DNA from: an uncultured Candidatus Saccharibacteria bacterium
GTDB taxonomy: Bacteria; Patescibacteriota; Dojkabacteria; B142; JAFGMG01
Assembly (NCBI GenBank): GCA_964444125.1
Contig: CAYUFB010000001.1
Coordinates: 26,053 to 90,052, forward strand
Length of the DNA: 64,000 nucleotides
Reading direction: 5' to 3'
Shown: positions 2,104 through 62,917 of the stretch, piece after piece
Numbering within the stretch: position 1 is the stretch's first letter
Layout: each line of letters starts with the position of its first letter
Notes under the pieces: model-generated
What the model was told of the DNA's origin: nothing
The model's input: the letters and a program-made list of their open reading frames with translations, nothing else
The model's database searches: none
Program-made: the position numbers and the translations under genes

Positions 2104-2499
2104 ATGAGACATAATTATAAAGTCAAAAAATTAGGCAGGCAGAAAGATCATAGAGATATGCTGGTTATAAACCAATTCAAGACTTTGGTTCAGTATGGCA
2201 AATTAGAAACAACTGAACAAAAGGCAAAAGTTGTAGCAGGTTTTGCAGATAAGATTCTTTCAAGATTGGCCAAATTAGATAATGAGAGAGCATTGCAGTT
2301 ATTAGAATCCAAATTAAAGAATAAAAAATTTACTAAGTATTTAGTAGAGGAAATCAAACCTGTCCTAGATAGAGAGTTTGGATTCGTTCGCAAATACAAA
2401 CTAGAGACTAGAAAAGGTGATAATGCTAGTATGATGTTACTTGAATTAATCAAGAAAGAACAAAAATCAAAAAAATCTAATAAAAAGAAAGAGAAATAA
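2104..2499 (+). CDS. rplQ: 50S ribosomal protein L17
   Basis: 131 aa. MRHNYKVKKLGRQKDHRDMLVINQ... is typical of L17, with a Lys-rich C-terminal tail. Confidence 0.9.
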   Translation: MRHNYKVKKLGRQKDHRDMLVINQFKTLVQYGKLETTEQKAKVVAGFADKILSRLAKLDNERALQLLESKLKNKKFTKYLVEEIKPVLDREFGFVRKYKLETRKGDNASMMLLELIKKEQKSKKSNKKKEK

Positions 2500-2501
2500 T
2501 T

Positions 2502-2936
2502 ATGATGAAAACCAGAGTAATTAAACAAAAAGAAGTAAATCAAAATTGGTATTTGTTTGATGCAAAAAATGTAAGACTTGGAAAGCTTGCTGTAGAGGTA
2601 TCAAAAACTCTTATGGGTAAAGACAAAGTCAATTCTGCAGATAATCTTGATGATGGTGACTATGTTGTTGTCATTAATGTCAAAGAATTATCTTTTCATC
2701 CTAAAAAATTAAACAACAAAAAATACTATTCCCACTCAGGATACATGGGTTCTCTAAAAACTGAAACTTTAAAAGATTTGTTTGAAAGAAAACCTGATGA
2801 AGTATTAAGAAAAGCTGTCAAGGGTATGTTACCAAAAAACAAAATTCAAGCGAAGATACTAAATAGACTATATATTTATGAGACTTCTGAGCATAAACAT
2901 GAGGCACAGAAGCCTATACAAATTAAGATCAAGTAA
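2502..2936 (+). CDS. rplM: 50S ribosomal protein L13
   Basis: 144 aa. NWYLFDAKNVRLGKLAVEVSKTLMGK is the L13 signature. Confidence 0.9.
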   Translation: MMKTRVIKQKEVNQNWYLFDAKNVRLGKLAVEVSKTLMGKDKVNSADNLDDGDYVVVINVKELSFHPKKLNNKKYYSHSGYMGSLKTETLKDLFERKPDEVLRKAVKGMLPKNKIQAKILNRLYIYETSEHKHEAQKPIQIKIK

Positions 2937-2941
2937 TAAAT

Positions 2942-3331
2942 ATGGAAAAATACATATATACAAAAGGAAGAAGAAAAACATCAGTTGCAACATTAAGATT
3001 GTATGAGGGCAATGGAGTCACAATGATTAATGACAAAAAGTTTGAAGATGTCTACAGAGATCCAGTAGATAGAGCATTGATTCTTGAGCCATTGAAATTA
3101 ATTGGTTCTCTAGATAAATACTACTTCACTTCAAAAACTAAAGGTGGTGGTGTCAAATCTCAAGCAGGAGCTATTAGACATGCATTATCACGTGCTTTGG
3201 TCAAATCAAGTAGTGATTTTAAATCCACACTTAAGAAAGCAGGAATGTTGGTTCGAGACGATAGAATGGTTGAAAGAAAAAAGACTGGCCTAAAGAAGGC
3301 AAGAAAATCCCCACAATTCTCAAAGAGATAA
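2942..3331 (+). CDS. rpsI: 30S ribosomal protein S9
   Basis: 129 aa. GGGVKSQAGAIRHALSRAL plus the C-terminal RKKTGLKKARKSPQFSKR. Confidence 0.92.
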   Translation: MEKYIYTKGRRKTSVATLRLYEGNGVTMINDKKFEDVYRDPVDRALILEPLKLIGSLDKYYFTSKTKGGGVKSQAGAIRHALSRALVKSSSDFKSTLKKAGMLVRDDRMVERKKTGLKKARKSPQFSKR

Positions 3332-7659: not shown

Positions 7660-8497
7660 GGAAAAGCACGCCATCCCGCAAAACATCATGGATGTTGAAT
7701 TTAAATTGTTCGGAAGTCTGACGATCAGACAATTCATGAGCTTGGTGGGGGCCGTCATTATTGCTGGTTTGATATATATTATTGCAACCCCGCTTGGCGT
7801 CCCCGGTATTGTATTCTGGCCAATTGTAGGCTTTATTTTGGCAATAGGCTTTGCAATGGCCTTTATGACAATCAATGGGCAGCCCTTCGCTAGATGGTTT
7901 AGAAATTTTGTATTTGCAATTTTTTCTTCACAGAAATATGTATGGCAAAAATCTCCTCAACCGCCTCAAGCATTGACGCAAAATGTCCCAAAGATGAGCC
8001 CTAAATCGGATAAACAGATTTCAAAAGAATTAGGGATTATGCCTCTTGTAGAAGTTATGTCTGAGAAAAACGTAGAACTAGACGAAGATGAAAAAAAAGA
8101 CTTGTCCAGGATAGATCGATATTTTCAAGCAGAATTTGATAAGTATGTTCCTTCTAAACAAACTGTTGAAAGCAAAAGGCAGGGAATAGCACAAGTTGAT
8201 ATAGAAAATGCCAATATAGCCGGAAATCAAAATAGGATGTATTATGGAGATAATGTAGTAGATATAGGCAAAGGAAAGAGAGCGGTTTATTCAAATATGC
8301 AAAATAGAGCTTCCAGACCTGTTATGAAGGACGATTCTGAAGTGATGATGGAAAAAAAAATCAAAGAGATACTTCAAAGACAGCGTGAACTCGATCCTTA
8401 TATAAAAACAATGGAAATAGAAGAAAGGGAAAAAGAACTCAAACAAGAAATGAGAAGACTTTATCAAGAAATTCAGGAGTTAAACTCTAAAAAATAA
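7658..8497 (+). CDS. PrgI/VirB3-like type IV secretion membrane protein
   Basis: 279 aa. The N-terminus (DVEFKLFGSLTIRQF, followed by two TM helices) resembles the PrgI family of Gram-positive T4SS. The C-terminus is a charged coiled coil. It lies immediately upstream of VirB4. Confidence 0.5.
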   Translation: MEKHAIPQNIMDVEFKLFGSLTIRQFMSLVGAVIIAGLIYIIATPLGVPGIVFWPIVGFILAIGFAMAFMTINGQPFARWFRNFVFAIFSSQKYVWQKSPQPPQALTQNVPKMSPKSDKQISKELGIMPLVEVMSEKNVELDEDEKKDLSRIDRYFQAEFDKYVPSKQTVESKRQGIAQVDIENANIAGNQNRMYYGDNVVDIGKGKRAVYSNMQNRASRPVMKDDSEVMMEKKIKEILQRQRELDPYIKTMEIEEREKELKQEMRRLYQEIQELNSKK

Positions 8498-9174
8498 TGG
8501 CAAAAAAAATACCTGCAACACAAGAACATTTGAGTATAGAAGAGATCGTTGATGATATGGTCATACTTCGCAATGGGGTCGTGGTGTTGATTCTTGAGAC
8601 AAGTGCTCTAAATTTCGATTTACTCTCAGAAGAAGAGCAGGATGTAAGGATTTTAGCATTCGCAAATTTATTAAATGGTGTAGATTACAGATTTGAGATA
8701 AGCATCAGAACGGTTAGAACAGATGTAAGTGAATATATAAAAAAACTTGAAGACTATAAATCCAAACAAATATCAAGGCCTCTTATTAGGCAGATAGAAA
8801 TATACATGCAATTTATACGAAATTTAACGACCAAAAATGAGATTCTAGACAAAAGATTTTTTGTTTCTATTCCCTATAGAGGTGGCCTTGTAGCAGATCC
8901 AAGTTTTTATAAAAAACTACTTGGGGCTAAGCCCAAGATTTCTAATGTCCCAAGGGTTGTAGAAAAAGCAAAAATTGATTTGTATCCAAAAAGAGACAAC
9001 ATTATCAGATTATTTAAAAAAATGGGTATATCGGCAAGACAGTTGACCAATAACGAATTATTGATGTTGTTTTATGAAATTTATGATCCTGATAAGATAG
9101 GGTACCAAAAGATCGGCCTAAATATTAGAGATTATACAACAGGTATTATTCAACCATTAAGGGAAGAAAAATAA
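8497..9174 (+). CDS. T4SS-associated protein, possibly the detached N-terminal domain of VirB4/TrsE
   Basis: 225 aa. LILETSALNFDLLSEEEQDVRILAFANLL resembles the N-terminal region of Gram-positive VirB4 homologs. It ends 2 nt before the VirB4 ATPase ORF. Confidence 0.45.
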   Translation: MAKKIPATQEHLSIEEIVDDMVILRNGVVVLILETSALNFDLLSEEEQDVRILAFANLLNGVDYRFEISIRTVRTDVSEYIKKLEDYKSKQISRPLIRQIEIYMQFIRNLTTKNEILDKRFFVSIPYRGGLVADPSFYKKLLGAKPKISNVPRVVEKAKIDLYPKRDNIIRLFKKMGISARQLTNNELLMLFYEIYDPDKIGYQKIGLNIRDYTTGIIQPLREEK

Positions 9175-9176
9175 AT

Positions 9177-11123
9177 ATGGGATTATTTAGCAAAAAGAAA
9201 AAACAGCAAGCTGGCAATATTGTACAAAAACAACAAAGTCAAGCAAGTAGTATGCAGGCTGAAGACAAGGCGGTCAAGGAGTTTGCTTCAGGGTTAATTA
9301 GTCCCAAAGACATCATTGCTCCTTCTGCAATCGAGGTTGATTTCAATCATCTTCTAGTTGGTTCTAAATATTTTAGAACTTATTTTGTAACTGGTTATCC
9401 AAGATTTGTGGGAGCGAACTGGTTATCTCCACTTATCAATTTTGATCATCCAATAGATATATCTACCTATTATTATCCCGTAGATACTGGTCTTGTCATG
9501 GAAAGGATAAAAAGGAAGATTGGTGAGTTTGAAGCGACAATAAATCTGGCATTAGATGAAGGCAAAATCCCAGATCCAAATGTCAAAGTCGCATTAGCAG
9601 ATGCAAGGGAACTGCAGGATCAATTAGCAAGCGGTACTGAGAAATATTTTCATTTTGCCTTGTATATTACTATTAGAGCCGAATCACTTAAACAGCTTGA
9701 AAAAATTTCTAGAAAAATTGAATCAACTTTGGCCTCTATTGGCGTTATAATCAAAATGGCAACTTTGCAACAGGAAGAAGGCTTTAGAACTACTATGCCA
9801 ATAGCTCATGATGAAATCTATATTACTAGGAATATGGATACGACTTCACTCGCTACGACTTTTCCTTTTGTAAGCTCTGAGCTTACTATGGATGATGGAA
9901 TTCTATATGGCCTAAACAAACACAATAGTAGTTTGGTTATTTTTGATAGATTTCAACTCGCAAATGCAAATATGGTCGTATTTGCAACGTCTGGAGCGGG
10001 CAAAAGTTATTTTGTGAAACTTGAGGCGATGCGAAGTCTTATGTTTGGTACAGAAATTATTGTGATTGATCCTGAAAAAGAATACGAAAAACTCTGCAAA
10101 ACAATTGGTGGCGAATATATATCGTTTTCTCAAGATGGAGATCAAAAACTTAATCCTTTTGAACTTTCTGGGGTATATTTGAAAGACGAGGATGAATTAA
10201 GATTTAAGATTCTGGCACTAAATGGTCTACTAAAAATTATGCTTGGGACTAAGCTCTCACCAGAACAAAGTGCAATATTAGATAGAGCTATTATTCTATG
10301 TTATAAAGAAAAAGGAATTACACCAGATCCTTCTACACAAAGAAATCAACCTCCATTACTTTCTGATCTGTACAAAATCTTGCAAGCTATGGCAGAACCT
10401 GATGCACATCTATTAGCAACTAGGCTAGAGAAGTATGTAAAAGGTAGTGCTGCTGGAATTTTTGATAGGCCATCAAATATTCAAATCAAAAATACGTTTA
10501 CAGTATTTTCTATTCGAGATCTTTCAGATGATTTGAGACCTATAGCTATGTATATGATGCTTGATTATATTTGGACGAGAATCAAAAGAGACCGCAAGAA
10601 AAGAATATTGGTTATTGATGAAGCTTGGTGGATGATGCAACATGAAGACGCAGCCCGTTTCATTCATTCTATTGCTAAAAGATCAAGGAAATATGCACTA
10701 GGGCTTACAACTATCACACAAGACGTTGAAGATTTCTTAAACACTGATTATGGCAAAGCAGTTGTGACAAACTCTGCTTTGCAGGTTTTGCTGAAACAAA
10801 GTCCAGTTGCAATTGATAAAATTCAAAATATTTTTTATCTAACTTCGGGAGAAAAAAATTACTTACTTTCAGCAGGAATTGGGGAAGGTCTGTTTTTTGC
10901 AGGATCAAATCATGTAGCTATTCAAGTTATTGCAAGTGAAAATGAACATAATCTAATTACAACAAATCCGCTTGAATTGATTGAACGGCAGAAAAAAGAG
11001 GAGGAAGCTTTGAAAATCCAAGAGGAAGAGAAGTTAAAGGCGCAAAGAGAAGGGGCTGAACAATCAGTAGATGAGACTCAAGCTGGTCAAAATACTGTAG
11101 ATGTCACAGATGGGGTGGTTTAA
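9177..11123 (+). CDS. virB4: VirB4/TrsE-family type IV secretion ATPase
   Basis: 648 aa with Walker A (VFATSGAGKSYFVK) and the Walker B/DEAW motif RILVIDEAWWMM, followed by TTITQDVEDF. These are characteristic of the VirB4/TraC/TrsE/PrgJ family. Confidence 0.85.
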   Translation: MGLFSKKKKQQAGNIVQKQQSQASSMQAEDKAVKEFASGLISPKDIIAPSAIEVDFNHLLVGSKYFRTYFVTGYPRFVGANWLSPLINFDHPIDISTYYYPVDTGLVMERIKRKIGEFEATINLALDEGKIPDPNVKVALADARELQDQLASGTEKYFHFALYITIRAESLKQLEKISRKIESTLASIGVIIKMATLQQEEGFRTTMPIAHDEIYITRNMDTTSLATTFPFVSSELTMDDGILYGLNKHNSSLVIFDRFQLANANMVVFATSGAGKSYFVKLEAMRSLMFGTEIIVIDPEKEYEKLCKTIGGEYISFSQDGDQKLNPFELSGVYLKDEDELRFKILALNGLLKIMLGTKLSPEQSAILDRAIILCYKEKGITPDPSTQRNQPPLLSDLYKILQAMAEPDAHLLATRLEKYVKGSAAGIFDRPSNIQIKNTFTVFSIRDLSDDLRPIAMYMMLDYIWTRIKRDRKKRILVIDEAWWMMQHEDAARFIHSIAKRSRKYALGLTTITQDVEDFLNTDYGKAVVTNSALQVLLKQSPVAIDKIQNIFYLTSGEKNYLLSAGIGEGLFFAGSNHVAIQVIASENEHNLITTNPLELIERQKKEEEALKIQEEEKLKAQREGAEQSVDETQAGQNTVDVTDGVV

Positions 11124-11760: not shown

Positions 11761-12118
11761 TCATACCAATCTAGACAATCGCGGTAAGAGAGACCTAGGT
11801 CTTTATTGCTGAGGAAAGTCCGGACATCGAGATCTTGTCTTACAAGATCAAAATAGTACCTTAGAGCGTCAAATAATTGACGTATATAAGGCAGGGAGTG
11901 ATCTCTGGAATAGGGCCACAGAAAAATACCGCCTTGGATTTATTTCGAGGTAAGGTTGAAAAGGTGAGGTAAGAGCTCACCGGCTTGATAAGCAATTATC
12001 AAGTGCTAGGTAACCTCTACTAGATGCAACCAAGCAAAATTTTGGGCAATAGATAAATGATTGTCGCTTAATTTCTTAAGAAATTTAAGCACAGAATCCG
12101 GCTTATTGATTGGTTATC
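11761..12118 (+). ncRNA. rnpB: RNase P RNA (bacterial type A)
   Basis: The conserved P4 strands are present: GAGGAAAGTCCGGAC near 11811 and ACAGAATCCGGCTTA near 12089. The GGTAAGGTTGAAAAGGTG...GTAAGAGC module is present. P1 pairs ataccaatc (11764) with gattggttat (12104). Confidence 0.8.
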
Positions 12119-12803
12119 TTCTTCTGTCATTTAGTCCATCTATCTTGAGTATGAAATATAGAAGTGAACTAAATGAACTTATTAATCCTGCAAGATAAGT
12201 TAATGATGCTGCGATTAAAACTTTTTTGGCTCCTGTCATTTCTGTCGGATCGAGTAGGTTATTTTTTCGAATTAAATGCAACGCTTTTTTACTTGCATCA
12301 ATCTCAAGCGGCAGGGTCAGTAAACTAAAAAGTGTTGAACCAGAAAAAAGAATTACACCCAGCCAGCCAAGATTAATACTTGAAATAAGTAGTGCAATAA
12401 TAATTAGAAAGTATCCAATATTTGTACCAATATTTACAACAGGAACGATAATACTCCTGGACTTAAATAATAAACTTCCTTGCTTATGTTGTACTGCATG
12501 TCCAACTTCATGGGCTGCAATAGCTATTGAACTGATTGTTGGGGTATTGGCAATTTGATGCGATAAGGTCAGTACACGATTGGTTGGATTATAATTGTCA
12601 CCAAGATGTGTACTTGTGCTTGCAAGTGAAATGGGTAGATTCTGGTCTTGTGCTAGGATTTTGACTGCGTCAAGCCCAGTAAGGTTTTTGGATGTGACAA
12701 TGTTTAAATATTTTGAACTGTAATATTTCACCAATAATGATGCTAGTATTGATAATAGAAGTGCCGGCAGTGCAAATAGTAAGTATCCTGAATCTATATA
12801 CAT
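12114..12803 (-). CDS. membrane zinc metallopeptidase (YugP/Zn_peptidase_2-like)
   Basis: 229 aa with several TM segments and a HEXXH motif (AAHEVGHAVQH). Confidence 0.7.
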   Translation of the reverse strand: MYIDSGYLLFALPALLLSILASLLVKYYSSKYLNIVTSKNLTGLDAVKILAQDQNLPISLASTSTHLGDNYNPTNRVLTLSHQIANTPTISSIAIAAHEVGHAVQHKQGSLLFKSRSIIVPVVNIGTNIGYFLIIIALLISSINLGWLGVILFSGSTLFSLLTLPLEIDASKKALHLIRKNNLLDPTEMTGAKKVLIAASLTYLAGLISSFSSLLYFILKIDGLNDRRR

Positions 12804-31470: not shown

Positions 31471-31526
31471 TTTAGATTTAGTTTGCAATACTGAGCATGT
31501 CGAAGAAGAGCAATACTAAATCTTAA

Positions 31527-31561
31527 ATCCCGTAAACAAATGAAATGAAGTTTTACGGGAT
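31527..31561. terminator. hairpin atcccgtaaa-N15-tttacgggat downstream of tRNA-Gly (terminator-like; stem recurs near tRNA-Gln)
   Basis: Perfect 10-bp stem. The same stem sequence is found at 47941-47974. Confidence 0.4.
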
Positions 31562-36828: not shown

Positions 36829-37209
36829 ATGTCAAATTATACAAATCCAATTCAGGCAAAAATTGACGAATTTATCAAAGAAAGAGATTGGGACAAATTG
36901 GATACTATTGGAGTCTATAATATGCTTTGTAATATTGGAGAAGAAACAGGGGAGATCTGGAACGAGATTAAATGGATAAATAATGATGAGGATCTGAAAA
37001 AAGTTATTGAAAAAGAAAAAGATGAATTAGCCGATGGTATAGGGGATTTGGTCTGGTGCGTAGCAAGACTTGCAAATATTTTCGGAGTTGACATGCAAAA
37101 AGCAGTTGAAGCAAGCCATGCTGAATATGAAGAGCGATTCCCAATTGATAAGGTCAAAGATCGGTCCGGCAATCCAAGTTTAGGTGGGTATGATGGAAAG
37201 TATGAGTAA
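36829..37209 (+). CDS. MazG-like nucleotide pyrophosphohydrolase
   Basis: 126 aa (EETGEIWNEI...DELADGIGDLVWCVARLANIFGVD). Confidence 0.65.
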   Translation: MSNYTNPIQAKIDEFIKERDWDKLDTIGVYNMLCNIGEETGEIWNEIKWINNDEDLKKVIEKEKDELADGIGDLVWCVARLANIFGVDMQKAVEASHAEYEERFPIDKVKDRSGNPSLGGYDGKYE

Positions 37210-37210
37210 T

Positions 37211-37390
37211 GCTTGCCTGCCTCTGGCAGGCTTATCTTGAGCGAAGTCGAAGGGAGTAATGTTTATCCGCCTCCTTGCCTGCCTTTGGCATGGTGGCGGG
37301 AGTGATGTTTACCCTGAGAGAAGCTCAAGGGAGTAGGTTTATCCGTCTCTGGCAGGCTTGTCCTGAAGGAAGCAGAAGGGAGTGATGAGG
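37211..37390. repeat. GC-rich imperfect tandem repeat (~50-nt unit, ~3.5 copies)
   Basis: Units share the pattern gtttatccg.ctctggcaggctt.tc.tga...gaagggagtgat. Unit 1 contains the perfect inverted repeat gcctgcc-tct-ggcaggc. The region is much more GC-rich than its surroundings. Confidence 0.6.
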
Positions 37391-37419
37391 ATTAATTTGG
37401 AAATTTTAAATAAATATTC

Positions 37420-38037
37420 ATGTGCACTCTGATTTTAACCTCTTATGCTTGTGTCGTAATAGACTTAATAAATAAGCTTCTTCCAAATAAAGAAAAGCTA
37501 AAAGTGGCTTTTCTTCCAACAGCAGGAGATCCTTATGAAGATAAATTCTTTGTCGAGAATGATAGAAAAGCATTGGTAGATTTGGTAATGGACGTAATTG
37601 AGGTTGATATTAAATTGATCAGGCAAAAAGAATTGGAAAAAATACTTAATGATGTAGATATAATTTTTGTCGCTGGTGGTAATGTTTTTTATCTCATGCA
37701 GGAGATGAGAAATAGTGGGTTTGATAGAATTGTTAAAGATATGTTAGAAAAAGGCAAAATATATATTGGCTCTAGTGCAGGTTCTGTTATTTGTTCTCCT
37801 ACTATAGAAGGATTCAAACAATTTGATGACCCATCTTTGGCACCAGGTCTAGAAAATTACAATGGACTTGATCTAGTCGATTCCATAATAATTCCTCATG
37901 CTCAAAAGGAAAAATATTTCGAACGGATAGAGAAGACTTCACTAGCTATGAATAAACTGGGATACGATGTAATAAAATTAACTGACAATCAAGCTTTCGT
38001 CGTGAAAGGAAAGAAAGGTGAAGTGATAAGTAGCTGA
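37420..38037 (+). CDS. peptidase S51 (dipeptidase E/cyanophycinase-like, class I glutamine amidotransferase fold)
   Basis: 205 aa with IFVAGGNVFYLMQEM and the Ser nucleophile context GSSAGSVIC. Confidence 0.7.
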   Translation: MCTLILTSYACVVIDLINKLLPNKEKLKVAFLPTAGDPYEDKFFVENDRKALVDLVMDVIEVDIKLIRQKELEKILNDVDIIFVAGGNVFYLMQEMRNSGFDRIVKDMLEKGKIYIGSSAGSVICSPTIEGFKQFDDPSLAPGLENYNGLDLVDSIIIPHAQKEKYFERIEKTSLAMNKLGYDVIKLTDNQAFVVKGKKGEVISS

Positions 38038-38111
38038 CAAAATTTGAAAAACTTAGACTTATAGAAGCATCCTATTTTTTTGTCAGGATTGGTTTCACTT
38101 AGCGACTAAAA

Positions 38112-46788: not shown

Positions 46789-47299
46789 TTTTGTTATTGA
46801 CTATTTTTCTTAAATTTTTTATTGCCCGATAAATTGCAACTTTTGTCGCAATCTTATTTTTATTAATAATTGTAGCAATTTCATTAATTTCAAGTTCTTC
46901 TATATATCTTAATATGATTATTTCTTTTTCATTTGGTCTCAATTTGTCTAGACAAATAAGAATTTGTTTAATCATTATTTCTTTGTCTAAATCTATTGTA
47001 TGATCAATGATGTCTTGATTAATTAGATCATTATAACTACTAGTATTGTTTTTGGCTTTTCTATATACATCAATTAAATGGTTTCTAGCGATCGAGTAAA
47101 TCCAATTTTTAAGTGTTGATCTTTTTGCATTAAATAGCGATTTTTTTTCCCATGCTTTCAAAAAAATATCCTGAGTGATGTCTTCTGCTATCTCTTTTTG
47201 ATAGCCAATATGTAAATAAACGTATCTATAGATTGGTTCATTCAATGACAAAAATAACTTTTTTAAATCATCAATTGTTTCTAATTTATTTACATCCAT
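46781..47299 (-). CDS. ECF-type RNA polymerase sigma factor
   Basis: 172 aa with sigma-70 regions 2 and 4 (DITQDIFLKAWEK...WIYSIARNHLIDVYRK). Confidence 0.8.
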   Translation of the reverse strand: MDVNKLETIDDLKKLFLSLNEPIYRYVYLHIGYQKEIAEDITQDIFLKAWEKKSLFNAKRSTLKNWIYSIARNHLIDVYRKAKNNTSSYNDLINQDIIDHTIDLDKEIMIKQILICLDKLRPNEKEIIILRYIEELEINEIATIINKNKIATKVAIYRAIKNLRKIVNNKNE

Positions 47300-47473
47300 A
47301 AGATCATTACGTTGTATCTATGATTTGGTTACTTCGATTAAAAAATCAGTACATAATTTATAATAACTCTATTTGTATTAGAAATAAAGAGTTATAGAAT
47401 AATTGAGGATGACGATATGGAAGTTGCGATGTGAGACGTGCGGGATATAAATTTCTCATCAACTCCCGACATA

Positions 47474-47503
47474 CCATGAATTGAATAAAATTCTAATTCA
47501 TGG
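47474..47503. promoter_or_regulatory. palindrome ccatgaatt-N12-aattcatgg upstream of the ECF sigma gene
   Basis: Perfect 9-bp inverted-repeat arms: a candidate operator. Confidence 0.35.
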
Positions 47504-47629
47504 TTGCGGGACCATGCCAGATAATAAACTATTATTTGTTAGATAAATGCGGGACCTGCCTTCATTCTCACTGCGTTCGAATTTCGTCAGGTTCTCGCCA
47601 ACTTCACGATTCGCTTGGCTCATCGGAAG

Positions 47630-47700
47630 TTGCGGGACTAGGATTCGAACCTAGATACACGGCTTCAGAGGCTGTTGTCCTACCATTAGACGATCCCGCA
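47630..47700 (-). tRNA. tRNA-Gln (anticodon CTG)
   Basis: The reverse complement is tgcgggatcgtctaatggtaggacaacagcctctgaagccgtgtatctaggttcgaatcctagtcccgca. It has a 7-bp acceptor, loop ctCTGaa and T-arm GGTTCGAATCC. There is one A-C mismatch in the anticodon stem. Confidence 0.75.
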
Positions 47701-47866
47701 ACACTTAGCGAACGCAAGTGAGCGTTAGTGTTGGCGAGGATGCCCGAATGGGTATCCCGCATTCACAAAATTTCACTTAGTGCGCTCTATTCTTGGCGAG
47801 GACCTGACGAATCCCGTTCTACGGGAGTAGGCAGGTCACGCAACAAATATATCTTTTAAAATAACA
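47689..47866. repeat. ~175-nt direct repeat copy A (begins inside the tRNA-Gln 5' end and covers its 5' flank)
   Basis: About 95% identical to 48032-48211. It is GC-rich with internal hairpins (cccgttctacggg). Confidence 0.8.
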
Positions 47867-47940
47867 ACGTTAGTATATCAGTATTTCGTAAATGCTATTT
47901 TTTATTATCTTCAATTATTTAGTTTATCATCCTACCATTA

Positions 47941-48045
47941 TCCCGTAAAAGCTCGCTTCGCTCATTTTACGGGACTAAGGTGCTCTAAGCTTCTGGCTCA
48001 TTTCACTCGCCATCAGCAAGACCACCGTTAGGACGATCCCGCAAC
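47941..48045 (-). other. degenerate tRNA-like remnant with cccgtaaaa/ttttacggg hairpin
   Basis: It aligns with the tRNA-Gln locus at both ends (tgcgggatcgtcctaacggtgg..., ...ccttagtcccgta) but lacks a T-arm. Confidence 0.4.
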
Positions 48046-48211
48046 ACTTAGCGAACGTAAGTGAGCGTTAGTGTTGGCGAGGATGCCCGAATGGGTATCC
48101 CGCATTCACAAAAATTTCACTTAGCGAGCTCTATCCTTGGCGAGGACCTGACGAATCACGTTCTACGGGAGAAGGCAGGTCACGCAACAAATATTATCTT
48201 TTAAAATAACA
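48032..48211. repeat. ~175-nt direct repeat copy B
   Basis: See copy A. It differs by about 8 substitutions or indels that are not adenine-specific. Confidence 0.8.
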
Positions 48212-48300
48212 TGCCAATTATACCAAAAAAGATATTAGTTTTTACTTATATGCTATTAATTTTGCAACAAATATGAAATTTGTAGTATGCTGTAGGCATT

Positions 48301-48663
48301 ATGATCAAAGACGCAGAATATGTTGGCAAAAAAAATGAAAGTGTGTTGGATATCCCTCAGAAGTTTTTTAAATCTATGATCTTTTTGTCTCTACGTATAG
48401 TTTTTTCACCTCTTGCGGTATTACTTTTGGCATACTTGTATTACGAAGATACTAGGAAGGCATTTTTGCTAGCTTTATTGTTTTATACCGTACTGACAAT
48501 TTTTTCGATATTCCAATCACTAATGCAGATATTTATGTCTGTAGTGACATTTAATTTGTTCAAATTTGTTAGAAAAAGTTTGAAAGTTATTATTATGTTT
48601 GTTGCGTTATTCCTTTATTGGCTTGGATATACGTTGATGTGGGATGGCAATTTTCGACTTTGA
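48301..48663 (+). CDS. small membrane protein, hypothetical
   Basis: 120 aa with 3 TM helices. Confidence 0.45.
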   Translation: MIKDAEYVGKKNESVLDIPQKFFKSMIFLSLRIVFSPLAVLLLAYLYYEDTRKAFLLALLFYTVLTIFSIFQSLMQIFMSVVTFNLFKFVRKSLKVIIMFVALFLYWLGYTLMWDGNFRL

Positions 48664-61347: not shown

Positions 61348-62151
61348 ATGCTGGATCCAAAGATAATAGGTAGAAGACTTAAATATTTTAGACAAAGAGT
61401 TGGTATCAGTCAGCTTGATCTTGAAATTGCTCTCGATATGTCCCAAGGCTCGGTAAGTAGGATAGAAAGTGGCAAAGTAAATCCCACGAAAGAGACAGTG
61501 TTGTCGATTGCTGGGAACCTACAGATGAATGATCGTGAGATCAGCTATGTTATTGGTCCATTAGCTTTGCCGCCGACTCAAAAAGAAGTTGAAAATGCGA
61601 TTCATACTATTCAGGAAGATTTTTCAAGAGATGATGTATATGCGTATTTAATTGATGATAGATTTCGTTTCCATTATATTTCTAAAGGATTTGAAAATCT
61701 TCTAAATATTATTCTTGAGAATTATCAAGAAAGATACTTAGACCTTGTTGGTACTTCTCTGTTTAGAATAGTGCTTGATGAAAGAATTGGTATCAATCAA
61801 TTTATCAAAGGAGATGTATCTCAGGTGCTTATTAGTCAATTGCTCAGATTTAATAAATATATGGGGTTTATGGTTGACGATGAATATTATTCTGAAACAT
61901 TAAATTTATTTGCAAAGTATCCTGGTGTGTCAGAACTTTGGAAACAAATTGAAAATGATAATTTGAATTTTAATTCGCTGGAGTCAAAGAAAGTCTCCCT
62001 GTCTTTTGAGTCCCTCTCATTCGATACGATTTTCGTGAGAGAACCAATCGCGAAATATCCAAGATTTGAGACTATTGAGTATGTTTTTTCTCATAAAGAT
62101 GTAATTGAATTATTAAAAGTACTAAATGCTGGATCCAAAGATAATAGGTAG
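61348..62151 (+). CDS. XRE-family HTH transcriptional regulator with ~200-aa C-terminal domain (paralog 1)
   Basis: 267 aa with an N-terminal Cro/C1-type HTH (LKYFRQRVGISQLDLEIALDMSQGSVSRIESGK). The C-terminal domain may be an MmyB-like ligand-binding fold. Confidence 0.7.
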   Translation: MLDPKIIGRRLKYFRQRVGISQLDLEIALDMSQGSVSRIESGKVNPTKETVLSIAGNLQMNDREISYVIGPLALPPTQKEVENAIHTIQEDFSRDDVYAYLIDDRFRFHYISKGFENLLNIILENYQERYLDLVGTSLFRIVLDERIGINQFIKGDVSQVLISQLLRFNKYMGFMVDDEYYSETLNLFAKYPGVSELWKQIENDNLNFNSLESKKVSLSFESLSFDTIFVREPIAKYPRFETIEYVFSHKDVIELLKVLNAGSKDNR

Positions 62152-62917
62152 AAGGCTAAAATATTTCAGAAAGAGGGCTGATATCAGTCAGCTTGATCTT
62201 GAGATCGCTCTCGATATGTCCCAAGGCTCGGTAAGTAGGATTGAAAGTGGCAAAGTGAATCCCACCAAAGAGACAGTTTTATCAATTGCTTGGAAGTTGA
62301 ATATGAATGATAGGGAGATTGACTATGTAATAGGTTCTTTGTTTTTTCCTGCAAATGAAAGTGAAATAGCAAAAGCAATTGAGGAAGTTAAGGGGATGTT
62401 AGACCGTCCTGGCGTTTTTGCTTACTTGATAGATGATAGATACAGACTCTTGTATTTATCTAGAGGTTTTGAAATTCTTTTTCGTAGATTATTACCTGAT
62501 TTCGAAAATAAATACGCGCGAATCAAAAATAAGAACATGGTTATTTTGTTCTGTGATGAAGATATTCAAATTGAAAAATATATGGCCAAAGACAAATTTA
62601 TTGAAATGATGAAGTTACAACTTGGAAGATTGAGGTCAAATATGGACTTTATGATTGATGATGAAAGTTATATTGAAGTTGAGAATATTATCAAGAAAAA
62701 CAAATTGATTAATCAGATATGGAATGAAATCGATTATAAAAATATGAATTTCAATACCTTAGAGTCTAGACAAGTAGTATTTAAGTTGATGGGGATAAAG
62801 ATTGGCTTAAATTTTTCACGCGAGCCTGTTTGGAAATATCCAAGGTTCGAAACTATTAAGTATATACCATCCAATAAATTTCTGCAAATATATAACAAAA
62901 TACTTTCTAGGGTATAA
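62126..62917 (+). CDS. XRE-family HTH transcriptional regulator (paralog 2, tandem duplicate)
   Basis: 263 aa. The first ~55 aa are nearly identical to paralog 1 (about 90% nt identity over the first 170 nt). Its start overlaps the paralog 1 stop by 26 nt. Confidence 0.7.
   Translation: MLDPKIIGRRLKYFRKRADISQLDLEIALDMSQGSVSRIESGKVNPTKETVLSIAWKLNMNDREIDYVIGSLFFPANESEIAKAIEEVKGMLDRPGVFAYLIDDRYRLLYLSRGFEILFRRLLPDFENKYARIKNKNMVILFCDEDIQIEKYMAKDKFIEMMKLQLGRLRSNMDFMIDDESYIEVENIIKKNKLINQIWNEIDYKNMNFNTLESRQVVFKLMGIKIGLNFSREPVWKYPRFETIKYIPSNKFLQIYNKILSRV

Follow-up and report, generated by a model that had tools for sequence, protein, structure and literature searches.

Probable local amplification and partial decay of a tRNA-Gln unit in a lineage of the Dojkabacteria group

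Introduction

Palindromic repeats of several kinds are found in bacterial genomes, including the REP/BIME sequences, the Rickettsia palindromic elements and the MITEs. The spacers of tRNA transcripts are also a source of small RNAs, as illustrated by the 3′ external transcribed spacer of E. coli leuZ. When a tRNA gene is duplicated in tandem and one copy becomes a pseudogene, paralogous flanks are left on both sides and one of the copies lacks the cloverleaf fold. In rRNA precursors, the complementary flanks of the mature RNA form leader-trailer helices, which are the stalks processed by RNase III (PMC11404451, PMC10250234). Finally, tRNA genes are common integration targets at which integration leaves partial tRNA copies, and in the described cases 9-23 kb of inserted DNA lie between the fragments (PMC9897764).

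Here we analyze a tRNA-Gln locus of an uncultured, AT-rich bacterium of the Dojkabacteria group that resembles each of these systems in part. The locus shares with tandem tRNA duplications the paralogous flanks on both sides and the loss of the cloverleaf fold in one copy. It differs from them by an extremely uneven divergence (95% identity in the leader, none in the tRNA interior), by a dead copy that is GC-rich and predicted to be stably folded, and by the unusually long structured leader included in the duplicated unit. As in rRNA precursors, complementary flanks enclose the mature RNA; however, the predicted helix encloses a single tRNA, would come from an inverted hairpin copy and is unconserved in relatives, and its cleavage is conjectural. 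As at integrative elements, the downstream side of the gene shows short direct copies of the tRNA 3′ end, but they measure only 8-10 nt, no element or integrase separates them, and the main repeat consists of the 5′ end and the upstream flank. The GC-rich imperfect palindromes, present in both orientations in an AT-rich genome, recall the bacterial palindromic repeats, from which they differ in that they are not dispersed (none outside the locus in 75 kb) and have neither transposase nor target duplications. As for the leuZ type of small RNA, a structured spacer RNA would be cotranscribed with the tRNA and freed by processing, although a stable product and a target are here conjectural. Taken together, the data probably reflect the lineage-specific local amplification and partial decay of a tRNA-Gln(CUG) unit, and not the scar of a mobile element.

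Results

The tRNA-Gln gene, with the anticodon CUG, was called by ARAGORN at positions 47630..47700 (minus strand) of the window, i.e. the whole 64-kb stretch of DNA under study, and matched Rfam RF00005 at 61.6 bits. Unless stated otherwise, the elements of the locus described below are on the minus strand. The tRNA has a U1-A72 pair and the discriminator A, and the gene is followed by CTTCC without an encoded CCA. It is 84% identical to the tRNA-Gln(CUG) of the relative L069 and 90% identical to the tRNA-Gln(UUG) of the relative L010. The same arrangement was present, at 99.96% identity, on an independent JGI metagenome contig (L001). Since this second assembly shows it too, the locus is not an assembly artefact; contigs of other assemblies break inside repeat copy B (L002 from 48059, L003 from 47949). 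No ORF keeps its frame from one repeat copy to the other, in agreement with the earlier note, which considered the whole region to be non-coding. A comparison with the Rfam 15 families gave the tRNA as the sole real match in the locus. A chance match to AgvB (15.8 bits, E = 4.6) falls in an AT-rich spacer.

A direct repeat beginning 12 nt inside the 5′ end of the tRNA had been noted, and alignment of positions 47689-47866 with 48032-48211 confirmed it, with 95.6% identity over 180 aligned nt. Copy A (47689..47866) comprises the 5′ leader of the working tRNA and its first 12 nt. Copy B (48032..48211), located upstream of tRNA-Gln at a spacing of 343-344 nt, is the same leader joined to a decayed tRNA-like copy, hereafter called psi. 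The homology reaches beyond the 175 nt initially noted, upstream to a -10 box and downstream to tRNA position 19, and alignment of the whole units shows that the -10 box, three leader hairpins (X, Y and H), the tRNA ends and a 13-mer of the trailer are common to both. In unit B, the predicted extended -10 box, TGGTATAAT (48217..48225), matches the consensus; at the homologous position unit A has a weaker extended -10-like box, TGATATACT (47872..47880), and the consensus of both units reads TGnTATAaT. The type of box found in unit B also precedes tRNA-Ser, as well as the tRNA-Gln of L069 and of L010. A 120-aa gene starts at 48301, and the extended -10 box of unit B points away from it.

The unit homology thus runs into both flanks of the gene at one period of ~344 nt, and the tRNA fold is lost in one copy, these being the two marks of a tandem duplication with a tRNA pseudogene. 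As judged from the sequence, a complete putative promoter-leader-tRNA-trailer unit is duplicated in tandem. Identity along the unit is, however, very uneven, ~95% in the leader and none across the tRNA interior, and to account for this one must additionally assume that the leaders were made alike by gene conversion or kept so by selection, or that the interior was replaced.

The leader of the working tRNA is predicted to be strongly structured. Together with the tandem duplication of the unit, this bears out, as a description, the duplicated structured ncRNA that had been one of the suggestions made for this region. Hairpin X of copy A (TTGCGTGACCTGCC..GTCAGGTCCTCGCCAA, 47793..47843; -21.7 kcal/mol, z -4.1) has its 5′ end ~29 nt past the -10 box, roughly where a tRNA would be expected to start. 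Its counterpart in copy B (48137..48187) differs at two positions, and one of these substitutions disrupts the inner stem. Hairpin Y (TGCGGGATACCCATTCGGGCATCCTCGCCAA, 47731..47761; -14.2 kcal/mol, z -2.9) is identical in copy B (48074..48104), and its first 8 nt are those of tRNA positions 1-8. X and Y both begin with the tRNA 5′ acceptor word TGCG[G/T]GA and finish in TCCTCGCCAA, so that their termini are common while their interiors differ. Element H (47701..47731) ends in TTCGCTAAGTG immediately 5′ of the tRNA and pairs, in the predicted fold, with the X-Y spacer as a stem beneath Y; its 10-mer TTCGCTAAGT also occurs in the tRNA-Gln leader of L010, and its copy B (48044..48074) differs by a single G-to-A change (minus strand). 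The spacer contains the 12-mer CACTAAGTGAAA (47771..47782; CGCTAAGTGAAA at 48115-48126 in copy B), which was found three times against 0.22 expected and recurs 7 nt past tRNA-Ser (38093-38104). Altogether, six substitutions distinguish the two copies, none of them compensatory.

The acceptor words raise the question of whether these elements come from the tRNA itself. Beyond words of 7-10 nt, the similarity of X, Y, H, of the inverted copy X′ and of the downstream hairpin Z (both described below) to the tRNA was not significant against shuffles, so that deriving X and Y from copies of the tRNA is conjectural. The same applies to two specific proposals, X as a tail-to-head junction of two tRNA copies and Y as an acceptor/T-arm minihelix, whose alignments did not exceed those of shuffled sequences.

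The 51-nt element X is self-complementary and occurs in three copies, of which one is inverted. X might be the unit of a low-copy mobile palindrome (REP/BIME or MITE type) that inserted around tRNA-Gln in both orientations, attracted by the acceptor stem or mimicking it. The shared termini and unlike interiors of X and Y are consistent with such an element, and so is a GC-rich cluster of hairpin repeats at 37211-37400, with which the locus shares the short words CTACTCCC and GCCTGCC/GGCAGG. However, the tandem duplication already explains two of the three X copies, and no further copy of X or Y was found in the 64-kb window and 11 kb of extra flank (about 75 kb). Target-site duplications do not flank X or Y, and the called genes include no transposase or RAYT gene. 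The 19-mer TTGGCGAGRACCTGACGAA of X gave a single match in viral contigs, inside a phage coding gene, and 50 single matches in metagenome contigs, 49 of them in contigs of 48-73% GC and many being copies of one gene; the fiftieth, in a contig of 41% GC, showed no likeness past the 19-mer. We attribute all these matches, largely to high-GC coding DNA, to chance, and as both collections seem to be without this organism, the scans are uninformative on its genome. A 28-mer of Y had no match in viral contigs, and the 5′ 24-mer of the tRNA matched one high-GC phage tRNA cluster there, which is irrelevant. On balance, a mobile palindrome is quite unlikely.

Comparison with relatives indicates that the architecture arose within this lineage. 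L069 is partly syntenic (its response regulator and pyruvate formate-lyase are 85% and 76% identical), and its tRNA-Gln(CUG) lies 22 nt past TGATATAAT, with no X, Y, H or Z. In L010, an AT-rich leader precedes tRNA-Gln(UUG). The leaders of both relatives being plain, short and AT-rich, the architecture is lineage-specific. The interpretation in the earlier note was to be abandoned if relatives carried the 175-nt unit only as a unique tRNA-Gln leader and neither expression nor structure spoke for it; the outcome goes further, because they are without the unit altogether, and this deprives a function of any backing from conservation or covariation. Among the relatives with a sigma homologue (L008-L014), none has X or Y, and tRNA-Gln stands beside the sigma gene only in L010. 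A search of genome contigs with the ECF sigma protein returned only paralogues of 27-31% identity from unrelated phyla. Synteny through the 120-aa gene was discarded, since this gene is not homologous to the 74-aa gene located upstream of sigma in the relatives.

The decayed copy psi (47967..48043) matches tRNA positions 1-19 (19/20) and 61-71 (10/11), while its interior is unalignable. This relatedness is significant (shuffle p<0.002), and psi was not called as a tRNA by ARAGORN nor by the Rfam tRNA model even at E<=10. The proposal of a tRNA pseudogene is thus supported as regards the decay, its length being about 77 nt rather than ~100 nt. Psi keeps the acceptor strands, the U1-A72 pair and the D-arm region, lacks a T arm, and is predicted to form, where the anticodon and T arms would be, a hairpin of 9 pairs that includes tandem G.A mismatches; the fold of psi has -35.1 kcal/mol and z -4.6. 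Its interior reaches 52% GC in a genome of 34% GC and is well folded, which plain decay does not predict. An origin of this interior from tRNA-Ser was considered, but the alignment was not significant against shuffles and the idea is only a conjecture. At the 3′ end of psi, a hairpin (CCCGTAAAA..TTTTACGGG, 47942..47973) uses the psi 3′ acceptor strand and contains the trailer 13-mer ATGAGCGAAGCGA (47953-47965). A second fragment of the tRNA 5′ region, TAATGGTAGGA (47930..47940), is an exact copy of tRNA positions 13-23 with ACGGGAT ahead of it.

These properties are relevant to the possibility that the locus produces functional structured RNAs. The ~150-nt leaders, or X/Y minihelices released by RNase P, and/or the psi RNA would then be stable molecules with a role of their own, either as acceptor-stem mimics titrating RNase P, the CCA-adding enzyme or GluRS/GatCAB, or as spacer-derived regulatory sRNAs. 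The locus is the largest GC-rich non-coding island of the 34% GC window, and structured RNAs are known to be enriched in GC-rich intergenic regions of AT-rich genomes (PMC6429828). The strong predicted folds (z -4 to -7), the canonical tRNA-type promoter of unit B, the identity of Y in both copies, the U1-A72 pair and D-arm region retained in psi, and a strain variant that turns a G.A mismatch of the psi hairpin into a U-A pair all point in the same direction. Against this, the elements are missing from the two nearest relatives with readable tRNA-Gln neighbourhoods, no compensatory change was seen, the copy-B leader folds much less stably than copy A (z -1.5 versus -4.6), psi is the most variable stretch between strains, whose apparent differences cluster at 47951-48058, and Rfam gave no match. 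We consider independent functional RNAs unlikely. As the substitutions are not compensatory and the relatives are without the elements, a function of the hairpins is unproven.

The working tRNA is followed by a trailer hairpin (47602..47628) containing ATGAGCCAAGCGA (47611-47623), which is homologous to the psi trailer (12/13 at the equivalent position, shuffle p = 0.0055). Next comes X′ (47546..47601), an inverted and diverged copy of X. Two pairs of inverted arms were identified, 47583-47601 with 47793-47811 (19 nt, 95%) and 47548-47561 with 47829-47842 (14 nt, 93%); overall, the X/X′ arms amount to 43 nt at 72%, lie 191 nt apart and flank the tRNA. An inverted partial copy allowing leader and trailer to pair had been proposed, and these arms support it. 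The predicted helix around the tRNA consists of 19 bp and 14 bp with one mismatch each. Both the MFE and the centroid structure include it, the pair probabilities being ~1.0, and cofolding of X and X′ yields -64.3 kcal/mol as compared with -36.9 for two separate hairpins, a gain of ~27 kcal/mol. The suggestion of an unusual tRNA processing architecture therefore holds as a description of the predicted pairing. Neither L069 nor L010, whose leaders are short or AT-rich, has such complementarity, and no conservation or covariation of the helix was found there.

Two further explanations depend on this arrangement. The X/X′ repeats could be recombination sites of a DNA inversion switch that would turn a 250-nt segment, and the tRNA within it, around with respect to the promoter. 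The tRNA is flanked by inverted repeats (19 to 43 nt, 191 nt apart), as would suit such a switch; however, they are imperfect (72% over 43 nt), no recombinase is encoded nearby and the orientation is the same in both assemblies, making it extremely improbable. A more elaborate scheme, for which we see little likelihood, is an rRNA-operon-like tRNA precursor in a genome-reduced CPR bacterium. The leader-trailer clamp, two minihelices copying the acceptor end and a promoter-driven, T-arm-less tRNA-Gln mimic would together act as functional decoys or as devices for processing or quality control, directed at RNase P, RNase III, the CCA-adding enzyme or the Glu-tRNA-Gln amidation pathway.

The earlier note also pointed to repeated copies of the complement of the tRNA 3′ acceptor strand, [t/a]tgcgggac, on the far side of the gene. 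The recurrence was verified for TGCGGGAC at 47505, 47548 and 47631 (3 found, 0.26 expected) and not for the site given at 47438, which reads GTGCGGGAT with the heptamer at 47439 and is not an exact match. Counting both strands, the window contains the heptamer TGCGGGA 10 times where 2.4 are expected, and 8 of these sites fall within this locus. The outermost word (47439..47445, plus strand; ATCCCGCA on the minus strand) is in the upstream region of the ECF sigma gene (47299-46781). In hairpin Z (GTCCCGCAACCATGAATT..AATTCATGGTATGTCGGGAG, 47462..47516; -23.5 kcal/mol, z -6.0), the first 10 nt of the 5′ arm repeat the tRNA 3′ end. More generally, the recurring TGCGGGA/TCCCGCA words are arms of local hairpins, 7-10 nt long and 40-190 nt apart.

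Reiterated 3′ ends could be the footprints of integrase-mediated insertion at tRNA-Gln followed by imprecise loss of the element. In favour of this, the tRNA 3′ end recurs on the downstream side, without inversion, as GTCCCGCAAC (47503-47512) and GTCCCGCA (47548-47555). The direct copies of the 3′ acceptor strand, found 75 and 118 nt past the tRNA, are nevertheless of 8-10 nt, too short to be separated from hairpin arms, and each word is indeed an arm of a local hairpin. The repeats are spaced by only 40-120 nt; the stretch from the tRNA to its 3′-end copies contains no element body, and no integrase or transposase was found among the called genes (Pfam matches) over 40.8-64 kb of the window. 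Moreover, the large repeat contains the tRNA 5′ end and its upstream flank, the opposite of an attachment-site duplication, and BLAST of the locus against phage and plasmid collections matched the tRNA body alone. Short hairpin-arm words and no called integrase do not support the idea of successive integrations and excisions, which we regard as very improbable. Other systems were set aside as well: a diversity-generating retroelement, because the copy differences are not adenine-specific, no reverse transcriptase is present and the region lies outside coding genes; and integron attC sites, CRISPR, retrons, T-box and omega/IS605-end RNAs, in view of the lack of a consensus, partner gene or Rfam match.

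Discussion

Local amplification with partial decay, the reading that we favour, would have proceeded as follows. The ancestral state would be that of the relatives, in which a plain tRNA-Gln follows a TGnTATAAT promoter at a distance of ~22-80 nt. The GC-rich hairpins X, Y and H would have lengthened the leader to ~150 nt in the present lineage, where X would also have been copied in inverted orientation just 3′ of the tRNA. A tandem duplication of the full unit (-10 box, X, Y, H, tRNA and trailer) would then have followed, its period being ~344 nt. The upstream copy may subsequently have lost its anticodon and T arms to become a tRNA pseudogene, its 5′ 200 nt having stayed ~95% identical or having been made so again by gene conversion.

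Transcription presumably starts upstream at the canonical promoter, at the weaker promoter inside the locus, or at both. Once the precursor is folded, pairing of X with X′ would enclose the tRNA in an interrupted helix of 33 bp between leader and trailer, which RNase III could plausibly cleave as it does in rRNA operons. RNase P would cut after U-1 and the 3′ end would be trimmed; since CCA is not encoded, it would be added enzymatically. Beyond the tRNA itself, precursor processing by RNase P, and possibly by RNase III, thus appears to be the likeliest role of the locus.

The locus is a well-documented case of local tRNA remodelling by duplication, inverted copying and decay. Its superficial resemblance to integration scars calls for caution when tRNA fragments and att sites are annotated in metagenome-assembled genomes. 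Should the leader-trailer helix and the hairpins prove to be in use, a single tRNA gene would combine an unusual rRNA-style precursor architecture with acceptor-stem mimicry, in a CPR lineage whose RNA-processing machinery is reduced and poorly known. Belonging, to judge from these comparisons, to one lineage, the locus does not open a long-standing question. In the same window, tRNA-Ser and tRNA-Gly have AT-rich leaders of 22-24 nt.

Tandem duplication of the tRNA-Gln transcription unit

The locus is best explained by a lineage-specific event in which a tRNA-Gln transcription unit was duplicated in tandem and then partly decayed; the unit itself combines an unusually long, hairpin-rich leader with a leader-trailer inverted repeat. 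The feature is real and had been correctly observed; it presents known kinds of event in a new variation and is of modest interest. The working tRNA-Gln(CUG) lies at 47630-47700 on the minus strand (ARAGORN; Rfam 61.6 bits). The direct repeat described in the earlier note (47689-47866 versus 48032-48211) was confirmed with 95.6% identity over 180 nt. The decayed tRNA-like copy said to abut its second member was also found: this 77-nt sequence (47967-48043) matches tRNA positions 1-19 and 61-71, with no match between them, and its similarity to the tRNA is significant against shuffles (p<0.002). At this locus ARAGORN and Rfam called only the real tRNA-Gln; even with the threshold relaxed to E≤10, the tRNA model of Rfam did not recognise the 77-nt copy.

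Unit A, carrying the working tRNA (47540-47885), was globally aligned with unit B, the upstream copy carrying the decayed one (47885-48230). Between the -10 box and tRNA position 19 the two are homologous at about 95%, but tRNA positions 20-60 do not align. Homology returns at the 3′ acceptor strand (10/11) and at a trailer 13-mer in the equivalent place (12/13; shuffle p = 0.0055). This alignment shows the repeat to be a tandem duplication that takes in the transcription unit as a whole and has a period of about 344 nt, rather than a duplicated leader only. That identity is so uneven would have one of three origins: gene conversion of the 5′ 200 nt, constraint on them, or replacement of the interior of copy B. 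The leaders differ by six substitutions and two indels, which are not compensatory, and the leader fold is weaker in copy B than in copy A (z of -1.5 versus -4.6). No reading frame is common to both copies, in agreement with the non-coding character claimed for the region.

On the tRNA (minus) strand, unit B comprises, from 5′ to 3′, a putative extended -10 box (TGGTATAAT, 48225-48217), hairpin X (48187-48137), a spacer containing CGCTAAGTGAAA, hairpin Y (48104-48074), element H, the decayed tRNA (48043-47967), a hairpin CCCGTAAAA..TTTTACGGG directly 3′ of it (47942-47973) that contains ATGAGCGAAGCGA, a second tRNA 5′ fragment (TAATGGTAGGA, 47940-47930) and a final spacer of 23% GC. Its -10 box is of the same type as those of other tRNA genes and faces away from the neighbouring 120-aa gene. 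Unit A likewise has a putative extended -10 box (TGATATACT, 47880-47872), hairpin X (47843-47793), a spacer, hairpin Y (47761-47731) and H, then the real tRNA, a hairpin in the trailer with ATGAGCCAAGCGA, the inverted copy of X termed X′ (47601-47546), hairpin Z (47516-47462) and, 3′ of Z, a last ATCCCGCA word. X and Y have both termini in common (TGCG[G/T]GA ... TCCTCGCCAA) and unrelated interiors; the TGCG[G/T]GA terminus is the 5′ acceptor word of tRNA-Gln itself. Two hairpins resemble each other (TCCCGTAAA(C/A)..(G)TTTTACGGGA): one at 31527-31560, 58 nt downstream of tRNA-Gly, and the one at 47942-47973, directly after the decayed tRNA-Gln copy.

Genomic setting and authenticity of the locus

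The window has a GC content of 34%. The best named relatives of its RpoA and ECF sigma factor belong to Candidatus Dojkabacteria and other CPR/Patescibacteria, the nearest being 79% and 63% identical, respectively; this places the organism among the uncultured CPR bacteria, without a close sequenced relative. The bacterial class A RNase P RNA at 11763-12120 scores fairly low (158 bits versus a gathering score of 100), as would suit a CPR lineage that has diverged. PrgI-like and TraG/DUF87 P-loop genes, type IV secretion-like (L065 16302-19737, window about 7690-11120), adjoin the ribosomal protein and rpoA cluster.

The locus lies in a 1-kb intergenic region between a 120-aa gene that begins at 48301 on the plus strand and an ECF sigma/DUF5667 operon that begins at 47299 on the minus strand. 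No other GC-rich non-coding island of the window comes near this region in size (47541-47850 and 47941-48190, about 51-52% GC). The tandem structure is genuine because an independent metagenome contig, L001, shows the identical arrangement at 99.96% identity; two further contigs end within the repeat. When the window was compared with L001 (7.7 kb) and L003, another contig of the organism (0.9 kb), all five differences in at least 8.6 kb (47951, 47958, 48014, 48027 and 48058) fell within a stretch of about 110 nt, 47951-48058, which spans the pseudogene with its hairpin and the H element of copy B. This cluster may reflect either a hot spot of mutation or noise in assembly next to a repeat. 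One difference turns a G.A mismatch of the pseudogene hairpin into a U-A pair. Together with the pseudogene interior, which is still 52% GC and well folded, and with the 12-mer CGCTAAGTGAAA, the clustering keeps alive the reading that functional structured RNA(s) arise from the locus, which we consider unlikely. The 12-mer lies in both X-Y spacers (47771-47782 and 48115-48126) and at 38093-38104, 7 nt 3′ of tRNA-Ser(GGA), and so connects the tRNA-Gln leader with the tRNA-Ser trailer.

Comparison with relatives

In the relative represented by contig L069, the response regulator and pyruvate formate-lyase are 85% and 76% identical to those of the window, and the gene order is the same on that side. 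Its tRNA-Gln(CUG) lies 22 nt 3′ of TGATATAAT, and about 1.2 kb separates it from the gene homologous to the 120-aa gene. The syntenic comparison proposed in the earlier note was negative: at this locus X, Y, H, X′ and Z are all absent, and the tRNA body alone aligns (84%). A second relative, L010, whose sigma factor is 59% identical, has a tRNA-Gln(UUG) whose leader is AT-rich and 79 nt long and which lies upstream of the sigma operon at a distance of 2.7 kb; the sole stretch that this leader has in common with H is the 10-mer TTCGCTAAGT (L010 2209-2218). In the window, tRNA-Ser and tRNA-Gly have AT-rich leaders of 22-24 nt after TATAAT boxes. The plain loci of the relatives and these short leaders indicate that this lineage itself gave rise to the elaborate leader, to the inverted copy and to the duplication. 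CGCTAAGTG stands immediately 5′ of both tRNA-Gln and its decayed copy; CGCTAAGTGAAA, CGCTAAGTG and TTCGCTAAGT may represent a tRNA spacer or processing motif of the lineage. The 780 nt 3′ of the L010 tRNA-Gln (2317-3093) are non-coding, with several strong hairpins and terminator-like stems.

Predicted folding and processing of the precursor

The inverted partial copy noted earlier holds up: 19 nt match at 95% and 14 nt at 93% (72% over the whole 43 nt). In the predicted fold of a 326-436-nt precursor, X pairs with X′ as helices of 19 and 14 bp around the tRNA, with pair probabilities of about 1.0. The cofold reaches -64.3 kcal/mol versus -36.9 for the separate hairpins, and the whole precursor has a z of about -7.2 to -7.5. 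The X/X′ helix would thus clamp the tRNA in a predicted RNase III-type processing geometry. Leader-trailer helices are used in RNase III processing of rRNA precursors (PMC11404451, PMC10250234). By analogy, the helix around the tRNA would have the geometry of that substrate. It could be a by-product, since it arises where a palindromic element has been copied in inverted orientation. A U before a tRNA is favourable for RNase P; the base just before the tRNA-Gln 5′ end is U, which would favour maturation of this end by RNase P. The 3′ CCA is encoded by none of the three window tRNA genes (47629-47620, 38111-38105, 31471-31476), so that of tRNA-Gln must be added, presumably enzymatically. The tRNA-Gln genes of L069 (2373-2378) and L010 (2314-2319) do encode CCA (GCAACCA).

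Mobile and palindromic elements

Reiterated tRNA 3′-end motifs had suggested remnants of integration and excision at tRNA-Gln. TGCGGGAC was indeed found at 47505, 47548 and 47631 (three occurrences versus 0.26 expected), while the supposed fourth site, whose heptamer is at 47439, reads GTGCGGGAT. Both strands of the window together contain the heptamer TGCGGGA ten times, versus 2.4 expected, and eight of the ten lie in the tRNA-Gln locus. The copies of the tRNA 3′ end downstream of the gene measure 8-10 nt, with distances of 40-120 nt between them, every one being an arm of a stable local hairpin; integration-derived tRNA fragments in the literature border inserts of 9-23 kb (PMC9897764). The genes called around the locus (40.8-64 kb) include no integrase or transposase; they comprise LytR, two sigma/anti-sigma pairs, RNase H, a histidine phosphatase, a response regulator, pyruvate formate-lyase and its activase, acyl-CoA synthetase, enolase and others. 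Integrase footprints were rejected on these grounds. In phage and plasmid collections the tRNA was matched and nothing else of the locus; collection-wide scans for X gave chance hits only, those collections evidently lacking this organism.

A dispersed palindromic element inserted at tRNA-Gln is improbable: a second GC-rich island at 37211-37400 has short words in common with hairpin X, but the search for further copies, also suggested earlier, found neither X nor Y anywhere else in the window, nor in a further 11 kb of flanking sequence. This island, non-coding and 53% GC, is bounded by ORFs 36829-37209 and 37420-38037 and gave no credible Rfam match. It has four degenerate units of 45-60 nt, in which GCCTGCC..GGCAGGC palindromes and GGGAGT[A/G]ATG recur, and contains a 126-nt direct repeat at 83% identity; CTACTCCC and GGCAGG are the words common with X. 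Elsewhere in the window, the neighbouring paralogous HTH_3/HTH_31 genes at 61348-62917 (267 and 263 aa), with a common 255-nt stretch at 82% identity, are another local tandem duplication.
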